A DNA stretch of 64,000 bases from an uncultured delta proteobacterium (GCA_963706575.1 CAVPNL010000004.1:64001-128000); one strand, 5' to 3'; shown: positions 10,114 to 38,633, counted from the first letter of the stretch. The notes: generated from the letters alone by a model not told the origin. Program-made: numbers and translations.

Positions 10114-11916
10114 TTACTCCTTTTGTCTCGTTATTTGATTTAAATAGGCCACGGCTGGCGCATTGTCAGGATTGATTTCAATAGCCCGTTTGAGGCTCTT
10201 TAAGCATTGGCGGCGTTCGCCCAGCAGCTCCTGAACCATGGCAAGATTAAAAAGGGCTTCATCCAGAAAAGCAGGCTCCATTTGGACCACCCGCGCATAC
10301 ATCTCCTTGGCCCTGGTATAATTTTCAGTGACCGCATAAATATATCCAAGGTTAAAAAAGGCATTCGGCAGCTGGGGTTCGAGCTCGGCGACCTTCTGAT
10401 AAGTATCGAGGGCCTGCGGATAATTGTTATCACGCAGGTAAATGAACCCGAGTTTGGACAGTACCGGCAAGCTGGTGGGCTTTATATCCAGTGCCTTGAG
10501 CAACAAGCCCTTCGCAAATTCCTTATCCGTTGAGATCATCTCTTCGGCCAGACCCCGCAATGCTTCGACGTAGGCATCTGATAATCCATTGATGGCGGAT
10601 TTATCATCGGCTAAAACCGTTTCAAATAACGCCACTGCTGAAGAAAATTGTCTGGCTTCAAGCGCGTCACGGGCGGCTTTAAGTTGGTCAGCAATCGTAT
10701 CGACATGCGGTGGCGTCAATTCAATCGAATAGGCCGCAACGGATCGGTCTGATGGTGTAAACGGCAGTTCGGCCAGACTGAGATTAAACACAAGACCAAT
10801 GAGGGCCATAGCGGCCAGCGGCATAAAACGCCAGATGTTGCGCCGAAGTAACTTCCATTTTCCGGGAGCGGCAAGAAAAACGGTGCTTCCGTATGTTCCC
10901 TCAGCGTCAGGTGTCAGGCTGCCCGGATCGGATCGCTCATCACCGTAAACCTGTGTTTTTTCCCATAATGCGGTTTCTTCTACGGCCAATTCTTCCTTAA
11001 AAAATTCTTTGACAAAATTGGCAAAACTTCTGCCGTTCGTCCGGACAGACAGCTCAAAAATGCATTCTTCCAGATCGGCGAGCATTTCCCCGCAGGTTTG
11101 ATAGCGCTGATCGGGATCCTTTGCCAGGGCCCCTTCCACAACCTCATGAATTTTTGCGGGAAGATCCGGCAACAGCTTGTCCAGCGGTTCATATTGGGCT
11201 TTACGCACCTTGGAATAAACCTGCATGGTTTCACCTTCGAACATTCGCCGTCCGGCCAGAAGTTCATAAAATATAATCCCGGTTGAAAAAATGTCGGACC
11301 GGTGATCAATGGTTTTGCCGGTGGCCTGCTCCGGTGACATATAGGCCAGTTTGCCTTTGATCAAACCCTCGTGAGTGGTGCTGTTGTGGCTGGCGGCCTT
11401 GGCGATGCCGAAATCAATAATTTTCACCTGACCTTCATAGGTCAAAAAAATATTTTGAGGATTGATATCACGATGGATGATATTTAGCGGCTTGCCCTGC
11501 AGGTCTTTTAAATTGTGCGAATAATCAAGCCCGGCACAGATACGCGAAATGATATAAAGGGTATTTTCCAGGCCCAGGGGCATGGCGGTTTTTCTGGCCT
11601 TACGGGTCAGCTTGCGCAGGTCCTTGCCAAAAAGGTATTCCATGGCGATAAAGTATTCGTCATCGATGCTGCCGAAATCGTAAATCTGGACAATGTTTTC
11701 ATGCTGAAGCAGTGCCGCAAGCTTGGCCTCATCAATAAAGGCCTTCACCAGGTTGCCCTGATCGGTGAGGTGCGGCAATATCTTTTTTATGGCGACCTGT
11801 TTTTCAAAACCATGCGCCCGGGTGACCTTGGAACGATACAGTTCGGCCATACCGCCCACAGCAATTTTCTGCAGCAGCTGATATTTACCGAATTTTTTAT
11901 GCTCGAAGTCTTTCAT
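10114..11916 (-). CDS. Hanks-type Ser/Thr protein kinase with TM helix and C-terminal TPR repeats
   Basis: GGMAELY, VAIKK, HRDINPQN, DFGIAK, YMSPEQ, SDIFS; hydrophobic segment; AFFNLG-type TPRs. Confidence 0.92.
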   Translation of the reverse strand: MKDFEHKKFGKYQLLQKIAVGGMAELYRSKVTRAHGFEKQVAIKKILPHLTDQGNLVKAFIDEAKLAALLQHENIVQIYDFGSIDDEYFIAMEYLFGKDLRKLTRKARKTAMPLGLENTLYIISRICAGLDYSHNLKDLQGKPLNIIHRDINPQNIFLTYEGQVKIIDFGIAKAASHNSTTHEGLIKGKLAYMSPEQATGKTIDHRSDIFSTGIIFYELLAGRRMFEGETMQVYSKVRKAQYEPLDKLLPDLPAKIHEVVEGALAKDPDQRYQTCGEMLADLEECIFELSVRTNGRSFANFVKEFFKEELAVEETALWEKTQVYGDERSDPGSLTPDAEGTYGSTVFLAAPGKWKLLRRNIWRFMPLAAMALIGLVFNLSLAELPFTPSDRSVAAYSIELTPPHVDTIADQLKAARDALEARQFSSAVALFETVLADDKSAINGLSDAYVEALRGLAEEMISTDKEFAKGLLLKALDIKPTSLPVLSKLGFIYLRDNNYPQALDTYQKVAELEPQLPNAFFNLGYIYAVTENYTRAKEMYARVVQMEPAFLDEALFNLAMVQELLGERRQCLKSLKRAIEINPDNAPAVAYLNQITRQKE

Positions 11917-12037
11917 TGGCTAGTTGATATATCGGCAATTCGGGGAGGATACTTGAGAATGGATTTTTGAATAATGACGCGAATTTGGATAAGCCAGGCA
12001 GGCTTGGACGACTGAATGTTGAAATAGAACTAATTAT

Positions 12038-12122
12038 CCACAGATTACGCAGATTGCACAGGTTAAAAAAGAGATATTTATGATGTTGATCAATAATCTG
12101 TGTGAATCTGTGTAATCTGCGG
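12038..12122. repeat. Inverted 9-mer tandem array (CAGATTACG type)
   Basis: CCACAGATTACGCAGATTGCACA ... TGTGTGAATCTGTGTAATCTGCGG; same family at 29154-29237. Confidence 0.8.
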
Positions 12123-12153
12123 CAGTATTGTTATTTTGCATCTCGGCACGAAT

Positions 12154-12238
12154 TCGTGGCTGGCCTGCGACGAGCTCAGCCGAGTCGAAGCCACTCCCAC
12201 ATTTCATTTTCAGCAGTGGGATCCCGATCAGCAGGAGA
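12154..12238. repeat. REPIN whose REP carries a 24-bp internal insert
   Basis: Reverse complement reads GTGGGAGTGGCTTC[GACTCGGCTGAGCTCGTCGCAGGC]CAGCCACGA; partner GTGGGATCCCGATCAGCAGGAGA at 12216-12238. Confidence 0.75.
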
Positions 12239-12307
12239 TATGATCTGGTATTTTGCGCCAGATTCCAACAGCGCCCTCGGACAGGAAGCATTGTTTTTAG
12301 GCCATTT

Positions 12308-13834
12308 TTAGATTTTGTAGAGCAAATCGATATATCTCTCCAGCAGATTGCCCACAACGCTGCGGACCGGCAGATTGGCTGCCAAGCCGTAAATGGGTGC
12401 CATGCGGCTGTCAGCGTCCGGATGATTGCGGACCATGTCGACGCCGGCTTTTAAATCGTCGATAAATCGTTCGGCCACACCGGGCTGGGTGTGTCTCAGC
12501 GTTACGCAAAGATGCACACAAGAGGGATGGTGCAGACCGTTAAGGCTCCATTTTCTGGATGTCAGATAATCCATCACCCGGTAGATATCCAGTGTTTTGG
12601 AACCAAAAGCGATGACCCACAGCGGATCGCCCAATATGTGAAGATCGGAAATATCTTGAATTCCCTTTTTGATTTTTGAGGCGGTTTCAAGTATTTTCCG
12701 ACTGGCCGTCAGGTAACCGCTTTTTCCGGTTTTGACCATGGCCGCCCAGCAAGCGGCACTCAGGGCACCGGGACGACTGCCCGCAAAGGTCGGCGAAAAA
12801 TAAAGCCCTCCGGGCCAATCGGTTGATGTAAAATACTGATAACGTCTCAGTTCCGGGCCCCGATACAAAATCACAGAGGTCCCTTTGGCCGCATATCCAT
12901 ATTTATGCGTATCTGCCGAAATTGACGTCACCCCGGGCAGTCTGAAATCAAATAGCGGCACTTCATAGCCGAGCTTTTCCGCCCAGGGCAAAACAAAACC
13001 GCCTAGGCAGGCATCGGTGTGAAACCCAATTCCCTTTTCTCTGGCCACCTCGGACAGCGCCTCAATCGGATCCACCATCCCGTGGGGAAACGAAGGCGCC
13101 GATCCGACCAATACAACAGAATTGCGAGTGACCGCATTGCGGGCTGCTGCTACATCCGCCCGGTAATCGGCGTCCACCGGTATGCGTTTGATTTTGATCT
13201 TGAAGTATTCCGCTGCCTTATCAAAGGCGGCATGGGCGGTGATCGGAAGGATCATCTCGGGCCGTGTGATCTTTTTTTGGTCCCGGGCCCAATCCCGGTA
13301 AGTTTTCATTGCCAGCAGAATACTTTCGGTTCCTCCCGACGACACTACCCCGCAGACTTTCTGATCCTTACCCGATTCGGCTGCAGCCGTATCGGCCCCC
13401 AGCATTTTGGCCGTCATGGACACAATTTCAGATTCGTATTTGGCACTGCTGGGCCACAGATCGGAGTGCAGGGGATTGCTCTGGGAATTCAGCGCGTAGA
13501 TCTGATTTAAAAACTGGATGTGGGCCTCATCACCGTGGTATACAGCACCGGAGGCGTATCCTTCTTTCCATTTGGCCTGCTCCAGATCAGACAGGGCCTG
13601 CATGTCTTTGAGGATATCGGATTGATCGCAGCCGATATCCGGTAATTCGGCCCAGGTGTCAAAATGGCCCCGGTAGGGTTTGACGACCCCTTCGAGCTCA
13701 TTGATGAGGGTTTCAAATTCTTTCTCAACCTTTTGTTTCACGGCAGGTATATGTTTGATGCGATTGTAGAACCAGGTCGCCATTCGGGGGTTGATTTTAC
13801 CAAGAAAACTTTCGCTAATTTTCTGAATATCCAT
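12308..13834 (-). CDS. PLP-dependent sphingosine-1-phosphate lyase-like enzyme
   Basis: [44 protein letters not shown] (PLP Lys), WPGGLY.SPT.AGSRPG. Confidence 0.85.
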
Positions 13835-33241: not shown

Positions 33242-33325
33242 AGTTGCAATTAACCTCCATTCAAATAGAACATTTTTTAATTTTGTGTCTTAATTGTAAT
33301 TTTTTGACATTTTATGATTTTTTTT

Positions 33326-33406
33326 ATCACGAAAACACGAAATTTAGAAAGCACGAAATTTAGCTTTTCCGCTTTTCGTGTTTTCGTCCTTTCGTGCTTT
33401 CGTGAT
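33326..33406. repeat. Inverted CACGAAA tandem array
   Basis: ATCACGAAAACACGAAATTTAGAAAGCACGAAA ... TTTCGTGTTTTCGTCCTTTCGTGCTTTCGTGAT; same family at 43289-43356. Confidence 0.8.
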
Positions 33407-33544
33407 TAATTTATCTTTTTTGGTTCTGGCTTGTTCGTGTTAGGTGTTACCAAATTTAATGGGTCAAAAATCGCTTGTCAATCAGTCTTTTCTATTTAGA
33501 AAAAACTTGACAACTTAAAGCAACCCATATATCGCAACCGCACA

Positions 33545-34738
33545 ATGCCGATTCCAACCCCTTTTCACGATAGAACTTCAAAATTATGCGCCAGCTATTG
33601 TTGGACCGATTGGGCGGGTTATTATGCGGTTTGTTCCTATAATATGCCCAATGAGAGCGAGTACTACGCCATACGGCATGCTGCCGGCTTAATTGATATC
33701 ACACCGTTATTTAAATATCAGATTACCGGAACCGACGCCGCGGCATTTCTGTCCCGCATCATGGCCAGAAATATTCAAAAAGTCAAGGCTGGCCAGGCGG
33801 TGTATTGCTGCTGGTGCAATGATTATGGAAAAGTGATCGATGATGGAACCGTTTTTCACCTGGATGGAGATCGCTTCCGTGTGCACACTGCTGAACCCAT
33901 GCTGGCCTGGTTCGATCAGTTTAAACGCGGTTTCAATATCGCCGTAGAAGATATAACAGAAACGATTGCCGCCGTCGCCATCCAGGGACCCACATCCCGC
34001 AATATACTGAAACAGCTCACGGATGTGGACATGGATGCATTGGCCTATTACCGCGTAACGCCCGCCAAGCTGGATGGGCTCGATACCTATATATCCCGCA
34101 GCGGTTTTACCGGCGACCTCGGATATGAAATCTGGGTGCAAAATACGGCCGCGCTGCCCCTTTGGGATGCCCTCATGTCCGCCGGAAAGCCCTATTTACT
34201 GCATCCTGCTGGCCTGGATGTTCTGGACATCACCCGCATCGAAGCCGGATTGATTCTAAGCGGTGTTGATTTTCACAATGCTGAACATTGCCTGATCGAG
34301 TCCCAAAAATCGACGCCTTTTGAGCTGGGCCTGGGCTGGACGGTTGATCTGGAACGCGAACCCTTTAGCGGTCAGCGGGCACTTAGAGCTGAACAGGCCA
34401 GCGGATCGCAATACGCATTGGTCGGACTTGAGCTTGACTGGGATGAGCAGGAAGCGCTTTACGCCAAACACGGCTTACCGGTTCAGGTTGCCGCAGGCGC
34501 CTGGCGCGCGGGTATGCCGGTCTATGCCGGTGAAGGCTCCCGGCAGATCGGCAAGGCCACCAGCGGCACCTGGTCCCCCATCATCAAGAAAAACCTGGCG
34601 CTGGCCTCCGTGAAAAACGAGTACGCTCAGCCGGGCACAAAACTCAAGATCGAATACACCGTGGAATATCAAAGAGAAACCGTGGCAGCGGTGGTTGCGC
34701 CAATGCCTTTTTACAATCCCGTACATAAAACAAACTGA
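33545..34738 (+). CDS. GcvT-like aminomethyltransferase family (folate-binding) protein
   Basis: TPFH, GKVIDDG, AIQGP.SR, SRSGFTGDLGYEIW, RIEAGL, G..TSG.WSP. Confidence 0.9.
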   Translation: MPIPTPFHDRTSKLCASYCWTDWAGYYAVCSYNMPNESEYYAIRHAAGLIDITPLFKYQITGTDAAAFLSRIMARNIQKVKAGQAVYCCWCNDYGKVIDDGTVFHLDGDRFRVHTAEPMLAWFDQFKRGFNIAVEDITETIAAVAIQGPTSRNILKQLTDVDMDALAYYRVTPAKLDGLDTYISRSGFTGDLGYEIWVQNTAALPLWDALMSAGKPYLLHPAGLDVLDITRIEAGLILSGVDFHNAEHCLIESQKSTPFELGLGWTVDLEREPFSGQRALRAEQASGSQYALVGLELDWDEQEALYAKHGLPVQVAAGAWRAGMPVYAGEGSRQIGKATSGTWSPIIKKNLALASVKNEYAQPGTKLKIEYTVEYQRETVAAVVAPMPFYNPVHKTN

Positions 34739-34782
34739 GTTGAGCGATTGTCGAGATTTGAATCGCTCGTTTTAGGAAAAGC

Positions 34783-36405
34783 ATGATGACTCAAGTGGCT
34801 CAACCGCTCCGGGACCACATACCGACGCAAACCTTTGACGCTATTATTGTCGGCGGAGGACACAACGGGCTGGTGTGCGCCGCCTATCTGGCAAAAGCCG
34901 GAAAAAAAGTCCTCGTTCTGGAACAGCGCCATATTCTGGGAGGCGCCGCTGCCAGCGACGAGATATTTGCGGGCTTCACTTTTTCGGTTTATTCATATGT
35001 GGTCAGTCTGTTCCGCCCGCACATCGTTCGCGAGCTTGAACTCACCCGGCACGGATATCAGGTGATACCGCTGGAATGCACGTTTACACCGTTTCCCGAT
35101 GGTGAATCTCTCACGCGTTGCGGAGATCCGGAAGCCACCCGGCGCGAAATCGCGCGATTCAGCCCGCATGATGCCGAAATTGCGCCCCGCTTCTCAATGG
35201 CCATGACGAAGATGGCCAGTTTCATCAAACACATTATCGATGCGCCCTCGCCCGACCCTGCCTCTCTTCGAATTGGTGAAATCGCCAAATTGCTGGGTCT
35301 GGGACGCCGTTTCAAACAATTGGATGCCGACGACCGCTACTTATTCACCAAACTGATGACAATGAGTGCGGTCGAATTTCTGGACCTGTGGTTCGAATCC
35401 GACCGTTTGAAGGGTCCCATGTCGGTCAGCGGCATCATCGGCACTTATCTGGGAGTGAGGTCCCCGGGTACCGCCTATGTTCTGTTGCATCATTACATGG
35501 GGGAAATAGACGGTGCCTTCCGGTCCTGGGGGCTTTCAAAAGGCGGCACCGGCGGCGTCAGCCTCGCTTGTGCCCGTGCAGCCCGATCATTTGGTGCTGA
35601 AATTCGGATCGAAGCGCCTGTGGAACAGATCCTGATAAAAGAAGGCAGCGCTGCCGGAGTGGTCGTGAAGGGTGGACACGAGATCAAAAGCAAGACCGTT
35701 ATTTCAGCCGCCGATACGCATCAGACATTTTTTAAGATGGTGGGCGAGCAGCATCTGGGCAACGATTTTGTGAGGCAGCTCAAACGCTTCAAATACAGGG
35801 GCAGTTCTGCCAAAGTAAATCTGGCCGTGGACCGCCTTCCGGAATTCAGCTGCAAACCGGGCGGCGGGCCCCATCTAAAGGGCGATATCACCATTGCCCC
35901 GGGGGTTGACTATCTGGAAAAAGCTTATGATGACGCCAAATACGGCGATTTTTCGAAAAAGCCGTTTCTGGATATTGTCATCCCGTCTTTGACCGATCCG
36001 ACCGTGGCCCCGCCGGGCAAGCACGTGATTTCGATTTTTGTCCAATACGCACCCTACCACCTGAAAGAAGGAGCAGCCCAATGGCCTGAAAAGCGGGAAG
36101 CATTGGGAGATACGGTGATCGACACGCTGGCCGAATACTGCCCGAATTTAAAAGATTCGATTTTACACCGCCAGGTCGTAACCCCCTGGGATTTGGAACA
36201 GGATGTAGGCCTTACCGAGGGCAACATTTTTCAGGGCGAGCTGAGTCTGGAGCAGCTCGGCCCATTTCGGCCGGTGGCGGGCTGGTCCCGCTACCGGACA
36301 CCGATCAATAACCTGTGGATGTGTGGTTCCTGTGTGCACCCGGGCGGTGGCATCATGGGCGCCCCCGGTGAGCTGGCCGCCAAAATGTTACTTAAGTACA
36401 GTTAA
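34783..36405 (+). CDS. Phytoene desaturase/PYROXD2-like FAD-dependent oxidoreductase
   Basis: IVGGGHNGLVCAAYLA, APPGKH, GNIFQGE, L..CGS..HPGGG..G. Confidence 0.88.
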   Translation: MMTQVAQPLRDHIPTQTFDAIIVGGGHNGLVCAAYLAKAGKKVLVLEQRHILGGAAASDEIFAGFTFSVYSYVVSLFRPHIVRELELTRHGYQVIPLECTFTPFPDGESLTRCGDPEATRREIARFSPHDAEIAPRFSMAMTKMASFIKHIIDAPSPDPASLRIGEIAKLLGLGRRFKQLDADDRYLFTKLMTMSAVEFLDLWFESDRLKGPMSVSGIIGTYLGVRSPGTAYVLLHHYMGEIDGAFRSWGLSKGGTGGVSLACARAARSFGAEIRIEAPVEQILIKEGSAAGVVVKGGHEIKSKTVISAADTHQTFFKMVGEQHLGNDFVRQLKRFKYRGSSAKVNLAVDRLPEFSCKPGGGPHLKGDITIAPGVDYLEKAYDDAKYGDFSKKPFLDIVIPSLTDPTVAPPGKHVISIFVQYAPYHLKEGAAQWPEKREALGDTVIDTLAEYCPNLKDSILHRQVVTPWDLEQDVGLTEGNIFQGELSLEQLGPFRPVAGWSRYRTPINNLWMCGSCVHPGGGIMGAPGELAAKMLLKYS

Positions 36406-36535
36406 TCGTTATTGGTTATTGGTTAATCGTGAGGTGTCAGGGGATTGTTTGATTAGTTTTATTTGTTTCATTGGTTGAATTGGTTGATTCAAACCGAACC
36501 AATTGAACGAATTTAACCAATCAAACCAATTAAAC
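36401..36535. repeat. 7-mer GTTAWTS array plus inverted 9-mer (ATTGGTTNN/AACCAATNN) array
   Basis: GTTAATC GTTATTG GTTATTG GTTAATC overlapping the TAA stop; 36444-36535 inverted arms. Confidence 0.75.
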
Positions 36536-36571
36536 GGATGGTCTAACCCTTTTAGTAGACCTAACTGAAAT

Positions 36572-38131
36572 ATGGAAATATCGAAAACCAACGCGTATGA
36601 TGTGATAATAATTGGTGCCGGTCATAATGGCCTGACCGCTGCTGCCTTATTGGCCAAACAGGGCCGCAAGGTCCTGATCCTTGAACGGCGCAACATCATC
36701 GGCGGTCTGGCGGCGGGAGAAGAATTTCATCCCGGATATCACTCCTGCGGCTTACTGCATGATAGCAGCCAGGTGCGTGCTAAAGCGGTCAGGGCACTCG
36801 ATTTGAAATCTCATGGTCTTGAATTTTTAGCGCGAAGGCCATCTGTCCTGGCTTTGGATCTCGAAGGCCGCGGGATACTTCTGGGGAACAAGGACGGCCG
36901 CACAGCCAGAGAAATCGATTTTTATTCACCTGATGATGCCAGGCAATATCTTAAATACCGTAAATTTATCAAACGCGTTGCCGCTGTCGTCAATCGCATC
37001 TTCGAGGAACAACCGCCGGCTATTGAATCCCTTGATGGCCGCACGCTCTTGGATCTTTTCAAAACCGGATTTGCGCTGCGGCGACTGGGCAAAACCACAA
37101 TGCTGGAATTTTTGCGCGTCTCACCCATGTGTGTCGCTGACTGGCTGAATGAATGGTTTGAAAATAATTGCTTAAAGGCCGCGCTGGCCGGCGCTGGCTT
37201 AAGCGGTAATTTCGCCGGCCCCTGGAGCCCCGGCACCGCCTTTAACCTGCTATTGTGGGAATGTTCCGCCAAACGCAGCATTAAAGGCGGCCCCCGGTCC
37301 TTGATCGCCGCTCTTGAAAAAGCGGCCCAATCCCAGGGGGTTGAAATTCGAACCGCGGCCGAAGTCATCGAATTACGGGTTTCCGGAGGAAAGGTCGAGG
37401 GGGTGGTGCTCAAAAACGATGAGCTCGTGCAGGCCTCCATTGTTGCCGCATCCTGCGACCCCCGACATACCTTTTTAGACCTGGTGCCGGGCAATCAGGT
37501 TGAAAGCTGGCAGGAACATCGCATGCAACATATTCGCGGCACCGGCACCACAGCGAAAGTGAACCTGGCGCTGAATACACAGCTGGAATTCAACGGCCGT
37601 TCGAGAAAAAAAATCGAGTTTGCCAGGACAGGCCACCACCTGGACCACCTCGAGAAAGCCTTTGACGCCTGCAAGTACGGGCAGTTTTCAGCCGACCCCA
37701 TCCTGGATATCCATATTCCCACCGTATCAAACCCGGATCTGGCGCCGCCGGGACACAGCGTGGTTTCTGTTCTGGTAAATTTCGTGCCCTATGGTCTACA
37801 ACCGCAATGGAGCCAGAATCAGATCGAAAAACTGGGGGATGCCGTTGTGGCAACCCTGAAGCAATACGCACCCGGCGTTACCGATGCAATTGTGGCCCGG
37901 GAAGTACTGTCTCCGGTCGATCTGGAGAAACGTTACGGTCTGATGAAGGGACATATCCTGCACGGTGAGCACGCCCTGGATCAGCTGATTTTAAGACCCA
38001 GCCCGGAATGCGCCCGCTACCACACACCGATCAAAGGACTGTATTTATGCGGCAGCGGCAGCCACCCCGGCGGCGGCATCACCTGCGGTCCGGGAGCGAT
38101 AGCGGCTTCTGTCATTACTAAACATAAATAA
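36572..38131 (+). CDS. Second phytoene desaturase/PYROXD2-like FAD-dependent oxidoreductase
   Basis: IIGAGHNGL.AA, APPGHS, GHI.HGE..LDQ, LYLCGSGSHPGGG. Confidence 0.88.
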   Translation: MEISKTNAYDVIIIGAGHNGLTAAALLAKQGRKVLILERRNIIGGLAAGEEFHPGYHSCGLLHDSSQVRAKAVRALDLKSHGLEFLARRPSVLALDLEGRGILLGNKDGRTAREIDFYSPDDARQYLKYRKFIKRVAAVVNRIFEEQPPAIESLDGRTLLDLFKTGFALRRLGKTTMLEFLRVSPMCVADWLNEWFENNCLKAALAGAGLSGNFAGPWSPGTAFNLLLWECSAKRSIKGGPRSLIAALEKAAQSQGVEIRTAAEVIELRVSGGKVEGVVLKNDELVQASIVAASCDPRHTFLDLVPGNQVESWQEHRMQHIRGTGTTAKVNLALNTQLEFNGRSRKKIEFARTGHHLDHLEKAFDACKYGQFSADPILDIHIPTVSNPDLAPPGHSVVSVLVNFVPYGLQPQWSQNQIEKLGDAVVATLKQYAPGVTDAIVAREVLSPVDLEKRYGLMKGHILHGEHALDQLILRPSPECARYHTPIKGLYLCGSGSHPGGGITCGPGAIAASVITKHK

Positions 38132-38189: not shown

Positions 38190-38218
38190 TTGACATACTA
38201 TATATTACATTCTATAAT
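38190..38218 (+). promoter_or_regulatory. Perfect-consensus sigma70 promoter
   Basis: TTGACA (38190-38195), 17 bp, TATAAT (38213-38218). Confidence 0.85.
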
Positions 38219-38306: not shown

Positions 38307-38633
38307 ATGTCACCTGCAAAGAAAAAAACAACTGCCAAAAAGCCTGCTGCGAAAAAGAAAACTGCCGCCAAGAAAACTGTTGCGAAAAAGAAAGCTGCTG
38401 CTAAGAAACCTGCTGCGAAAAAGAAAACTGCCGCCAAGAAAACTGTTGCGAAAAAGAAAACTGCTGCGAAGAAAGCTGCTGCGAAAAAGAAAACTGCCGC
38501 CAAGAAAACTGTTGCGAAAAAGAAAGCTGCTGCTAAGAAACCTGCTGCGAAAAAGAAAACTGCCGCGAAGAAAGCTGTTGCGAAAAAGAAAACTGCTGCT
38601 AAGAAAGCTGTTGCGAAAAAGAAAAAGAAGTAA
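38307..38633 (+). CDS. Histone H1-like Lys/Ala-rich protein
   Basis: 108 aa, 50 Lys, no acidic residue, eight 11-aa repeats; AAGGGAG RBS, own promoter and terminator. Confidence 0.85.
   Translation: MSPAKKKTTAKKPAAKKKTAAKKTVAKKKAAAKKPAAKKKTAAKKTVAKKKTAAKKAAAKKKTAAKKTVAKKKAAAKKPAAKKKTAAKKAVAKKKTAAKKAVAKKKKK

Follow-up and report, generated by a model that had tools for sequence, protein, structure and literature searches.

Dimethylglycine oxidase (DMGO), dimethylglycine dehydrogenase (DMGDH) and sarcosine dehydrogenase (SDH) couple the oxidation of an N-methyl group by a flavin to a GcvT-fold domain that binds tetrahydrofolate (THF). DmmD is described as a free-standing GcvT-type protein that partners an N-demethylase, the dimethylamine monooxygenase DmmDABC (PMC5520151). 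The THF domain of trimethylamine N-oxide (TMAO) demethylase (TDM) is reported to bind THF at approximately 149 nM, to be supplied with formaldehyde through a tunnel and to make methylene-THF from it (PMC13619132). Here, we describe a three-gene unit (the trio) in 64,000 nt of DNA from an uncultured delta proteobacterium (GCA_963706575.1, CAVPNL010000004.1:64001-128000; the window). An earlier reading of the window from its sequence alone (the sequence-only reading) had proposed a unit of one GcvT-family protein and two paralogous flavin adenine dinucleotide (FAD) oxidoreductases; the coordinates of the three open reading frames (ORFs), all on the + strand, agree with it (genes T, F1 and F2, Table 1). 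The trio is likely a folate-coupled N-demethylation module, with F1 oxidizing the substrate and T trapping the carbon as methylene-THF. This model starts from the gene content, linkage and fold class of the trio and from a motif that is kept in F1 and lost in F2.

T is a stand-alone chain that scored below both gcvT models (PRK00389, 234.8 for a cut-off of 300; TIGR00528, 186.5 for a cut-off of 235.85) and below other curated cut-offs (DmdA, 131.6/410; LigM, 55.5/580; DesA, 58.3/800). The TMAO demethylase model gave 274 of 1100 bits and covered only profile positions 388-758 of 763; the N-terminal catalytic domain of that enzyme has no counterpart in T, whose best PDB sequence match was its C-terminal (THF) domain (9Q5A). 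In GcvT, the Asn of the V-N-A motif and the Arg of the G-A-R-D motif have a role in H-protein turnover. Neither residue was found in any T orthologue (0/80), and both are present in the alignments of Thermotoga maritima GcvT and of the genome's own GcvT. D100 and E195 were conserved in 80/80 aligned orthologues. Three of the four folate contacts named for TDM map to conserved T positions: counted along the T-TDM alignment, R480 corresponds to R75 (R/K in 80/80), F582 to Y169 (F/Y in 80/80), K782 to H394/K395 (K395 in 78/80) and F672 to W265 (W in 50/80). On sequence grounds T is not a glycine-cleavage T-protein, because the two canonical residues are gone and because a separate canonical GcvT, fused to serine hydroxymethyltransferase (SHMT) in a chain of 883 aa (contig C6, L086:7160-9811) and far from gcvH-gcvP, passes both gcvT cut-offs. 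T is instead predicted to be a formaldehyde- or iminium-to-THF trap, like DmmD or the C-terminal domain of TDM. Close homologues of T (74-76% identical) were labeled Desulfobacterales by their sources.

Both flavoproteins match the FAD Rossmann and Amino_oxidase domains and are 35% identical over 530 aa. The best NCBIfam model of both was CrtO (NF045689), with 289 bits for F1 and 270 bits for F2 at a cut-off of 1000; a Deinococcus CrtO-like protein that heads a carotenoid cluster, and that was taken for CrtO, also fell below it (298.5), as did oyster PYROXD2 (311). The AlphaFold model of F1 (predicted local distance difference test, 88; predicted template modeling score, 0.90) has the CrtI/MAO fold. 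Behind its top match (discussed below) came an archaeal oxidoreductase of unknown function, a plant phytoene desaturase, renalases and amine oxidases (Z 19-26). The amine oxidases MAO, NicA2, putrescine oxidase and LSD1 gave Z 19-23 (LSD1, Z 19), and the DAO-type proline dehydrogenase and ThiO gave Z 17. Cluster names returned from ESM Atlas were PYROXD2, amine-oxidase and phytoene-desaturase only. The modeled fold would allow C-N oxidation without demonstrating it, and is distinct from that of the DAO-type domain in DMGDH. The DAO profile matched F1 over 38 of 353 positions only (F1 residues 19-55), at the N-terminal FAD motif. The view of the sequence-only reading that the trio is a split dimethylglycine or sarcosine dehydrogenase was thus abandoned.

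The two flavoproteins are unequal. F1 orthologues keep S71-Y72, Y232-x-L-x-H236-H237, W249-G250 and N481-I-F483, and YxLxHH was present in 81/81 F1 orthologues vs. 0/69 F2 (a count that excludes one F2 with a long insertion). The same split was repeated in 4/4 alphaproteobacterial plasmid pairs. F2 retains an N-terminal dinucleotide motif (60/69), a C-terminal HPG (58/69) and E-x-A-[FY]-D-x-x-K-[YH] (67/69), whereas the F1-invariant pocket positions are variable in F2, with no new invariant set replacing them. Invariant columns numbered 11 in F2 and more than 100 in F1. F1 and F2 formed sister clades (FastTree, support 0.93), and at the 67 loci compared for both, the mean tree distance was 2.3-times as large for F2 as for F1. 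The E379/D383/K386 motif and E486 were kept in F1 and F2 and not in eukaryotic relatives; these residues are candidates for an interface. With the pocket motif YxLxHH lost, F2 is probably a non-catalytic or re-specialized partner. The flavoprotein pair of the sequence-only reading therefore stands as a pair of paralogues and fails as a pair of equals, the PYROXD2-type pocket motif being found only in F1.

A second pair of CrtO-like flavoproteins was found on contig C12 (L002:7288-8868 and 11584-13197); an aldehyde:ferredoxin oxidoreductase, a branched-chain ABC transporter and a UbiD decarboxylase are encoded in the same cluster, along with a CoxG-like gene. This pair was rejected as part of the system, as it has no T neighbor and no F1 motif.

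A scan with the T alignment (one genome per species) gave at least 596 relatives, of which the best 80 were kept. A flavoprotein relative was found within 8 kb of T at 75 of these 80 loci (37 co-directional and 38 divergent), and two flavoproteins at 64. In the reverse search with F1, T was found in 52 of 80 metagenome loci and a second flavoprotein in 67. When only long F1 loci were counted (≥2.5 kb upstream and ≥4 kb downstream; n = 22), T was found in 20 and a second flavoprotein in all 22. The association of T with the flavoproteins is far above chance, and the trio loci counted are related to one another, not independent draws. Conservation of the trio, on which the sequence-only reading had made its proposal depend, was thus borne out from both sides.

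Carriers of the trio include Bacteroidota, Acidobacteriota, Planctomycetota, Gemmatimonadota, Zixibacteria, Latescibacterota and others. Of 21 other genomes of the window's genus, 15 have T, and of three in the sister genus none does. All three genes were present at 13 of the 15 same-genus loci fetched; the other two contigs end in or right after F1. A survey of 200 other genomes of the phylum gave an F1 match at E 1e-70 in only two (42-46% identity). In a quick IQ-TREE tree, the genus was nested among rows of Bacteroidota, Zixibacteria, Krumholzibacteriota, Latescibacterota and Acidobacteriota (SH-aLRT 85-94), and the sole other Thermodesulfobacteriota row lay away from it. Because the tree nests the genus among other phyla, it suggests that the trio was gained laterally long ago. 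The GC content of the trio genes (77th-93rd percentile of 2354 long ORFs) gave no strong sign of recent transfer.

F1 shared 40-41% identity with PYROXD2 of oyster and mayfly and has SY-x-x-x-L, YVLLHH-x-MG and GNIF in common with animal PYROXD2; F2 was 33% identical and lacks the motifs. The precise function of PYROXD2, which is mitochondrial, is described as little known as of 2022 (PMC8777681). A human PYROXD2 missense variant is reported to account for 50% of the variance in N6-methyllysine, 48% in N6,N6-dimethyllysine and 21% in N-methylpipecolate (PMC8109053), and the methyl-lysine association is reported as replicated (PMC9730628). The epsilon-alkyllysinase of rat kidney (1963-64; Kim, Benoiton and Paik, 1964) is described as an FAD-type activity that converts free N6-methyl-lysine to lysine and formaldehyde, and the discoverers' review equates it with LSD1 (PMC3936616). 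We suggest that PYROXD2 may be the enzyme of this free-amino-acid alkyllysinase activity. Searches of the open-access literature (subscription journals were outside their scope) returned no description of the trio, no PYROXD2 enzyme assay and no bacterial trimethyllysine demethylation by such genes.

PYROXD2-type flavoproteins also occur repeatedly fused to the zinc domain GFA (PF04828). Such fusions made up 30 of the 120 matches listed for a query reaching from the GFA domain of P0163 into the beginning of its flavoprotein part (examples: P0163, P0128 and P0325-P0370). Their sources include eukaryotic protein sets, among them Perkinsus olseni, and they are apparently protist. The 18 longest (≥740 aa) were 44-87% mutually identical, and YVLLHH was present in 21/21 fusions reaching the motif. 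GFA is described as binding glutathione and may co-localize formaldehyde with it (PMC4682968). Both this fusion pattern and the less solid one of an in-frame GcvT-flavoprotein chain (P0126, discussed below) speak for the module.

A wider proposal, which we make tentatively and with clearly less confidence than that of the module itself, is that F1 and PYROXD2 are the free-methyl-lysine demethylases (epsilon-alkyllysinases) of bacteria and mitochondria and recycle lysine from methylated proteins. The formaldehyde would pass to folate through the GcvT partner in bacteria or to glutathione through the fused GFA in protists, and in a sulfate reducer an oxygen-independent heterodimer of one active and one inactive subunit would feed the Wood-Ljungdahl pathway. 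The locus contributes an anaerobic, sulfate-reducer version, a quantified split between a putatively active F1 and a degenerate F2, the fusions with GFA and the link to alkyllysinase.

A Rieske oxygenase alpha subunit was found near T at 36/80 genome loci by tblastn and at 33/80 by clustering, and the best model of six of the seven neighbor Rieske proteins scanned was the glycine betaine monooxygenase GbcA (below cut-off). An APC amino-acid permease was found near T at 25 or 26 of 80 genome loci. The plasmid trios of cultured Alphaproteobacteria were accompanied by class III aminotransferases and Pot-type ABC transporters (4/4), by TetR regulators and, in one of four, by a Lys/Arg/Orn-type binding protein. 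Three further plasmid matches were solo flavoproteins, one adjoining a GcvT-like gene. On a Shinella plasmid (L124:11998-14749), a single PYROXD2-type flavoprotein lies beside a different GcvT-like gene, which scored near the canonical gcvT cut-offs, among carnitine-type genes; this is possibly an independent pairing of both families.

The genome of the window (5.67 Mb, 91.8% complete) carries dsrA, acetyl-CoA synthase and FolD, together with three DMGDH-like fusions and Sox alpha/beta-like genes of its own. It has 12 MttB matches, two of which are halves of one broken gene (11-12 MttB-family methyltransferases). From its gene content the host looks like a sulfate reducer with the equipment for methylated amines, which gives context support to the suggestion of the sequence-only reading that N-demethylation feeds C1 metabolism in an anaerobe. 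A dense methylated-amine region on contig C15 (10000-44000; L004, L085) contains MttB-family methyltransferases, two DMGDH-like fusions and sarcosine-oxidase alpha/beta-like genes. On the same contig (L003:5528-6664), a lone squalene/phytoene-synthase-like gene lies between 2-oxoacid:ferredoxin oxidoreductase and carboxylase genes. The gcvPB region of contig C18 (L001:9128-10646) is made of two overlapping ORFs (247 and 282 aa), from a frameshift or an assembly error.

From these data we infer a chemistry for the trio, together with its substrate, electron acceptor and any complex, as follows. F1 would take a hydride from an N-methyl group and leave an iminium; the methylated amine is most likely an omega-N-methyl amino acid, for instance N6-methyl- or N6,N6-dimethyl-lysine. 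The iminium, or formaldehyde, would reach T and be condensed with THF to 5,10-methylene-THF, and FolD and the acetyl-CoA synthase pathway would take this product onward. F2 would be a flavin-binding partner without a catalytic pocket that stabilizes F1 or relays electrons, and the electrons would probably go to quinone, not to O2. If N-demethylation is accepted, methyl-lysine-type substrates take about half of the likelihood, and N-methyl-pipecolate or N-methyl-proline types, methylated polyamines and simple methylamines share the rest. A quaternary amine is not oxidizable by hydride abstraction from its N-methyl group, and this would explain the Rieske neighbor in aerobes, where the adjoining GbcA-like oxygenase would first convert the quaternary to a tertiary amine. 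In the sulfate reducer, MttB-family methyltransferases could carry out the quaternary step without oxygen. Ring_hydroxyl_A had no match in the window's genome or in 16 same-genus stretches, which fits an oxygen-free version with MttB-type enzymes acting first.

Other explanations of the trio were weighed. The strongest of them, although still rather unlikely, is that F2 is a second active enzyme of other specificity (e.g., for separate dimethyl and monomethyl steps) with no obligate heterodimer. The motifs that F2 retains and its presence at all of the long F1 loci agree with this, but its pocket positions are variable, with no substitute invariant set, and its scarcity of invariant columns and faster evolution also speak against it. 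It is improbable that T is a DmdA/LigM-type methyltransferase that passes a methyl group directly to THF (5-methyl-THF), the flavoproteins oxidizing the demethylated product later. DmdA and LigM are stand-alone GcvT-fold demethylases, both were among the PDB matches of T, and a methylene-THF-reductase-associated gene (DUF5981) lies downstream at one locus (L008). However, the DmdA, LigM and DesA scores were far under their cut-offs, the TDM domain matched better, and the fusions with GFA in the flavoprotein family suggest that the flavoprotein releases formaldehyde. No better chance is given to a polyamine or amino-acid dehydrogenase, in which the flavoproteins would cut C-N at a longer alkyl carbon and T would serve another reaction of the same pathway. 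The fold is in common with putrescine and polyamine oxidases, and Pot-type transporters and omega-aminotransferases occur at the plasmid loci, yet in the window's genus T stays with F1 although all other neighbors have been lost, and direct coupling fits this better.

The carotenoid alternative, which the sequence-only reading had set against its own proposal, is very unlikely. F1 and F2 would then be carotenoid or hopanoid desaturases or ketolases (CrtI/CrtD/CrtO-like) working independently of folate, and for this speak the CrtO model, the CrtD fold and the single squalene/phytoene-synthase-like gene of the genome. However, supporting gene context was missing: a search with a single probe, the synthase of the genome itself, gave no phytoene-synthase neighbor in 80, 80 and 16 loci, and no crt genes were found among 55 scanned proteins, mostly neighbor representatives. 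The genome search (92% complete) gave no squalene-hopene cyclase match and only partial lycopene-cyclase matches, and the Deinococcus CrtO-like protein was 31% identical and lacks both F1 motifs. The least probable explanation, which we regard as close to negligible, is that T is the glycine-cleavage T-protein of the genome and the flavoproteins are chance neighbors. In its favor, the gcvH-gcvPA-gcvPB locus on contig C18 has no gcvT alongside, but the GcvT-SHMT fusion passes both cut-offs that T fails, and T orthologues lack the canonical Asn and Arg (80/80).

Several observations weigh against the folate-coupled module or against its link to PYROXD2. The flavoprotein partner was absent at 5/80 T loci (some with short flanks) and the T partner at 2/22 long F1 loci. 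The top structure match of F1 was the carotenoid desaturase CrtD (4REP; Z 33.7, rmsd 2.9 over 472 residues), well over the amine oxidases. In the window's genus, no transporter or catabolic neighbor of the trio names a substrate. The one clean in-frame GcvT-flavoprotein fusion chain (P0126) is a singleton from a sister subfamily without YxLxHH, and no second was found among 150 representatives. In a FastTree tree without the human sequence, F1 and F2 grouped together (support 0.93) and the eukaryotic PYROXD2 clade lay elsewhere; judged from this tree, F1/F2 and eukaryotic PYROXD2 are probably cousins, not orthologues. As described in PMC4682968, GFA did not catalyze formation of the formaldehyde-glutathione adduct, and the GFA fusion is therefore only a hint of formaldehyde chemistry. 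At the human locus, the neighboring HPS1 may be causal for trimethylamine, as reported in PMC9286311.

T and the flavoproteins are separate ORFs in the window and in the fetched loci. An alignment of P0126 with T and F1 rows was discarded because it had misaligned, with the T rows at 14-19% identity. Apparent F1-F2, T-F1 and F-Rieske fusions (P0122-P0125, P0129-P0132, P0136 and P0138) were piecewise matches and were rejected as frameshift artefacts; those whose sequence was read have out-of-frame stretches inside. P0121 is a singleton resembling a deletion or chimera.

Table 1 Trio genes and nearby features, in positions of the window
Feature	Position	Strand	Description
T	33545..34738	+	GcvT-fold protein, 397 aa; GCV_T (PF01571) and GCV_T_C (PF08669)
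F1	34783..36405	+	PYROXD2-type FAD oxidoreductase, 540 aa; predicted catalytic subunit
F2	36572..38131	+	Fast-evolving F1 paralogue, 519 aa; predicted partner or re-specialized subunit
Lysine-rich ORF	38307-38633	+	Lys/Ala-rich repeat protein, 108 aa
Palindromic repeat, F1-F2 spacer	36447..36535	.	REP-like (repetitive extragenic palindromic), 39-nt arms; ~97 loci in genome
Second palindromic repeat, upstream of T	33323..33409	.	REP-like, 36-nt arms; ~28 loci in genome

The trio is flanked by a nucleoside-phosphorylase-like gene and ligA on one side and by the lysine-rich ORF and glyQS on the other. As the sequence-only reading had stated, gcvP, gcvH and crtB are missing from the window: none was found among 31 other long ORFs scanned against Pfam, the long ORFs outside the scan being housekeeping genes recognized from their translation. 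This absence is itself uninformative, since the genome has gcvH-gcvPA-gcvPB and one synthase-like gene on other contigs (C18 and C15). Both REP-like palindromes are built of short tandem units and belong to families that are not specific to the trio. In same-genus relatives, the F1-F2 spacer mostly holds other repeat families at the same place, which suggests an insertion hotspot for repeats. No promoter-like site was found on the + strand upstream of T, and promoter scan counts were at chance level. In nine RNA runs the shares were 0.05-0.07; RNA contigs of relatives (mostly <95% alike) overlap parts of T, F1 and F2 in three of four runs; this overlap is evidence of neither transcription nor an operon. 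A perfect TTGACA-17-TATAAT site (38190-38218) lies ahead of the lysine-rich ORF, whose product had no Pfam match at 1e-12 and presumably resembles histone H1-like proteins.

The trio connects a disease-linked family of human flavoproteins, as yet uncharacterized, to chemistry that is testable in cultured bacteria. If the model is true, N-demethylation would have been coupled to folate a further time, independently, and by a CrtI/MAO-fold flavoprotein rather than by a DAO-fold flavoprotein, a monooxygenase or a zinc enzyme. Many 'phytoene dehydrogenase' annotations would then need correction, and sulfate reducers of sediments would have an oxygen-independent route for methylated amino acids.

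Among known systems, the sequence matches of T include structures of DMGO, DMGDH and SDH (1PJ5, 4PAB and 5L46). In these enzymes, and in heterotetrameric sarcosine oxidase, a DAO-family flavin domain is fused to or assembled with GcvT, whereas the trio has separate genes and CrtI/MAO-fold flavoproteins. DmmD and the TDM C-terminal domain, as described in PMC5520151 and PMC13619132, are GcvT-fold partners that join formaldehyde from N-demethylation to THF, as is predicted for T; T is likened to DmmD by this published description. Their formaldehyde comes from an NADPH-dependent monooxygenase or a zinc demethylase, whereas that of the trio would come from a flavoprotein dehydrogenase pair. Eukaryotic PYROXD2 lacks the E-x-A-[FY]-D-x-x-K-Y motif of F1 and F2 and is a single gene in animals, with no GcvT partner known; protist forms have a GFA domain instead. 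CrtO, CrtD and CrtI have the fold of F1 and F2 and gave the best profile and structure matches, but identity to solved structures was 16-20% and the trio lacks carotenoid gene context. LSD1/KDM1 and epsilon-alkyllysinase convert N6-methyl-lysine to lysine and formaldehyde by FAD amine-oxidase-type chemistry, and LSD1 has the MAO fold like F1, but it acts on histones with O2 as acceptor, unlike the chemistry proposed for F1. Judged from profiles and alignments, the trio would work like DMGDH, DmmD and TDM while failing membership in each family tested, and it is best read as a convergent analogue of dimethylglycine dehydrogenase, not as a split copy of it.

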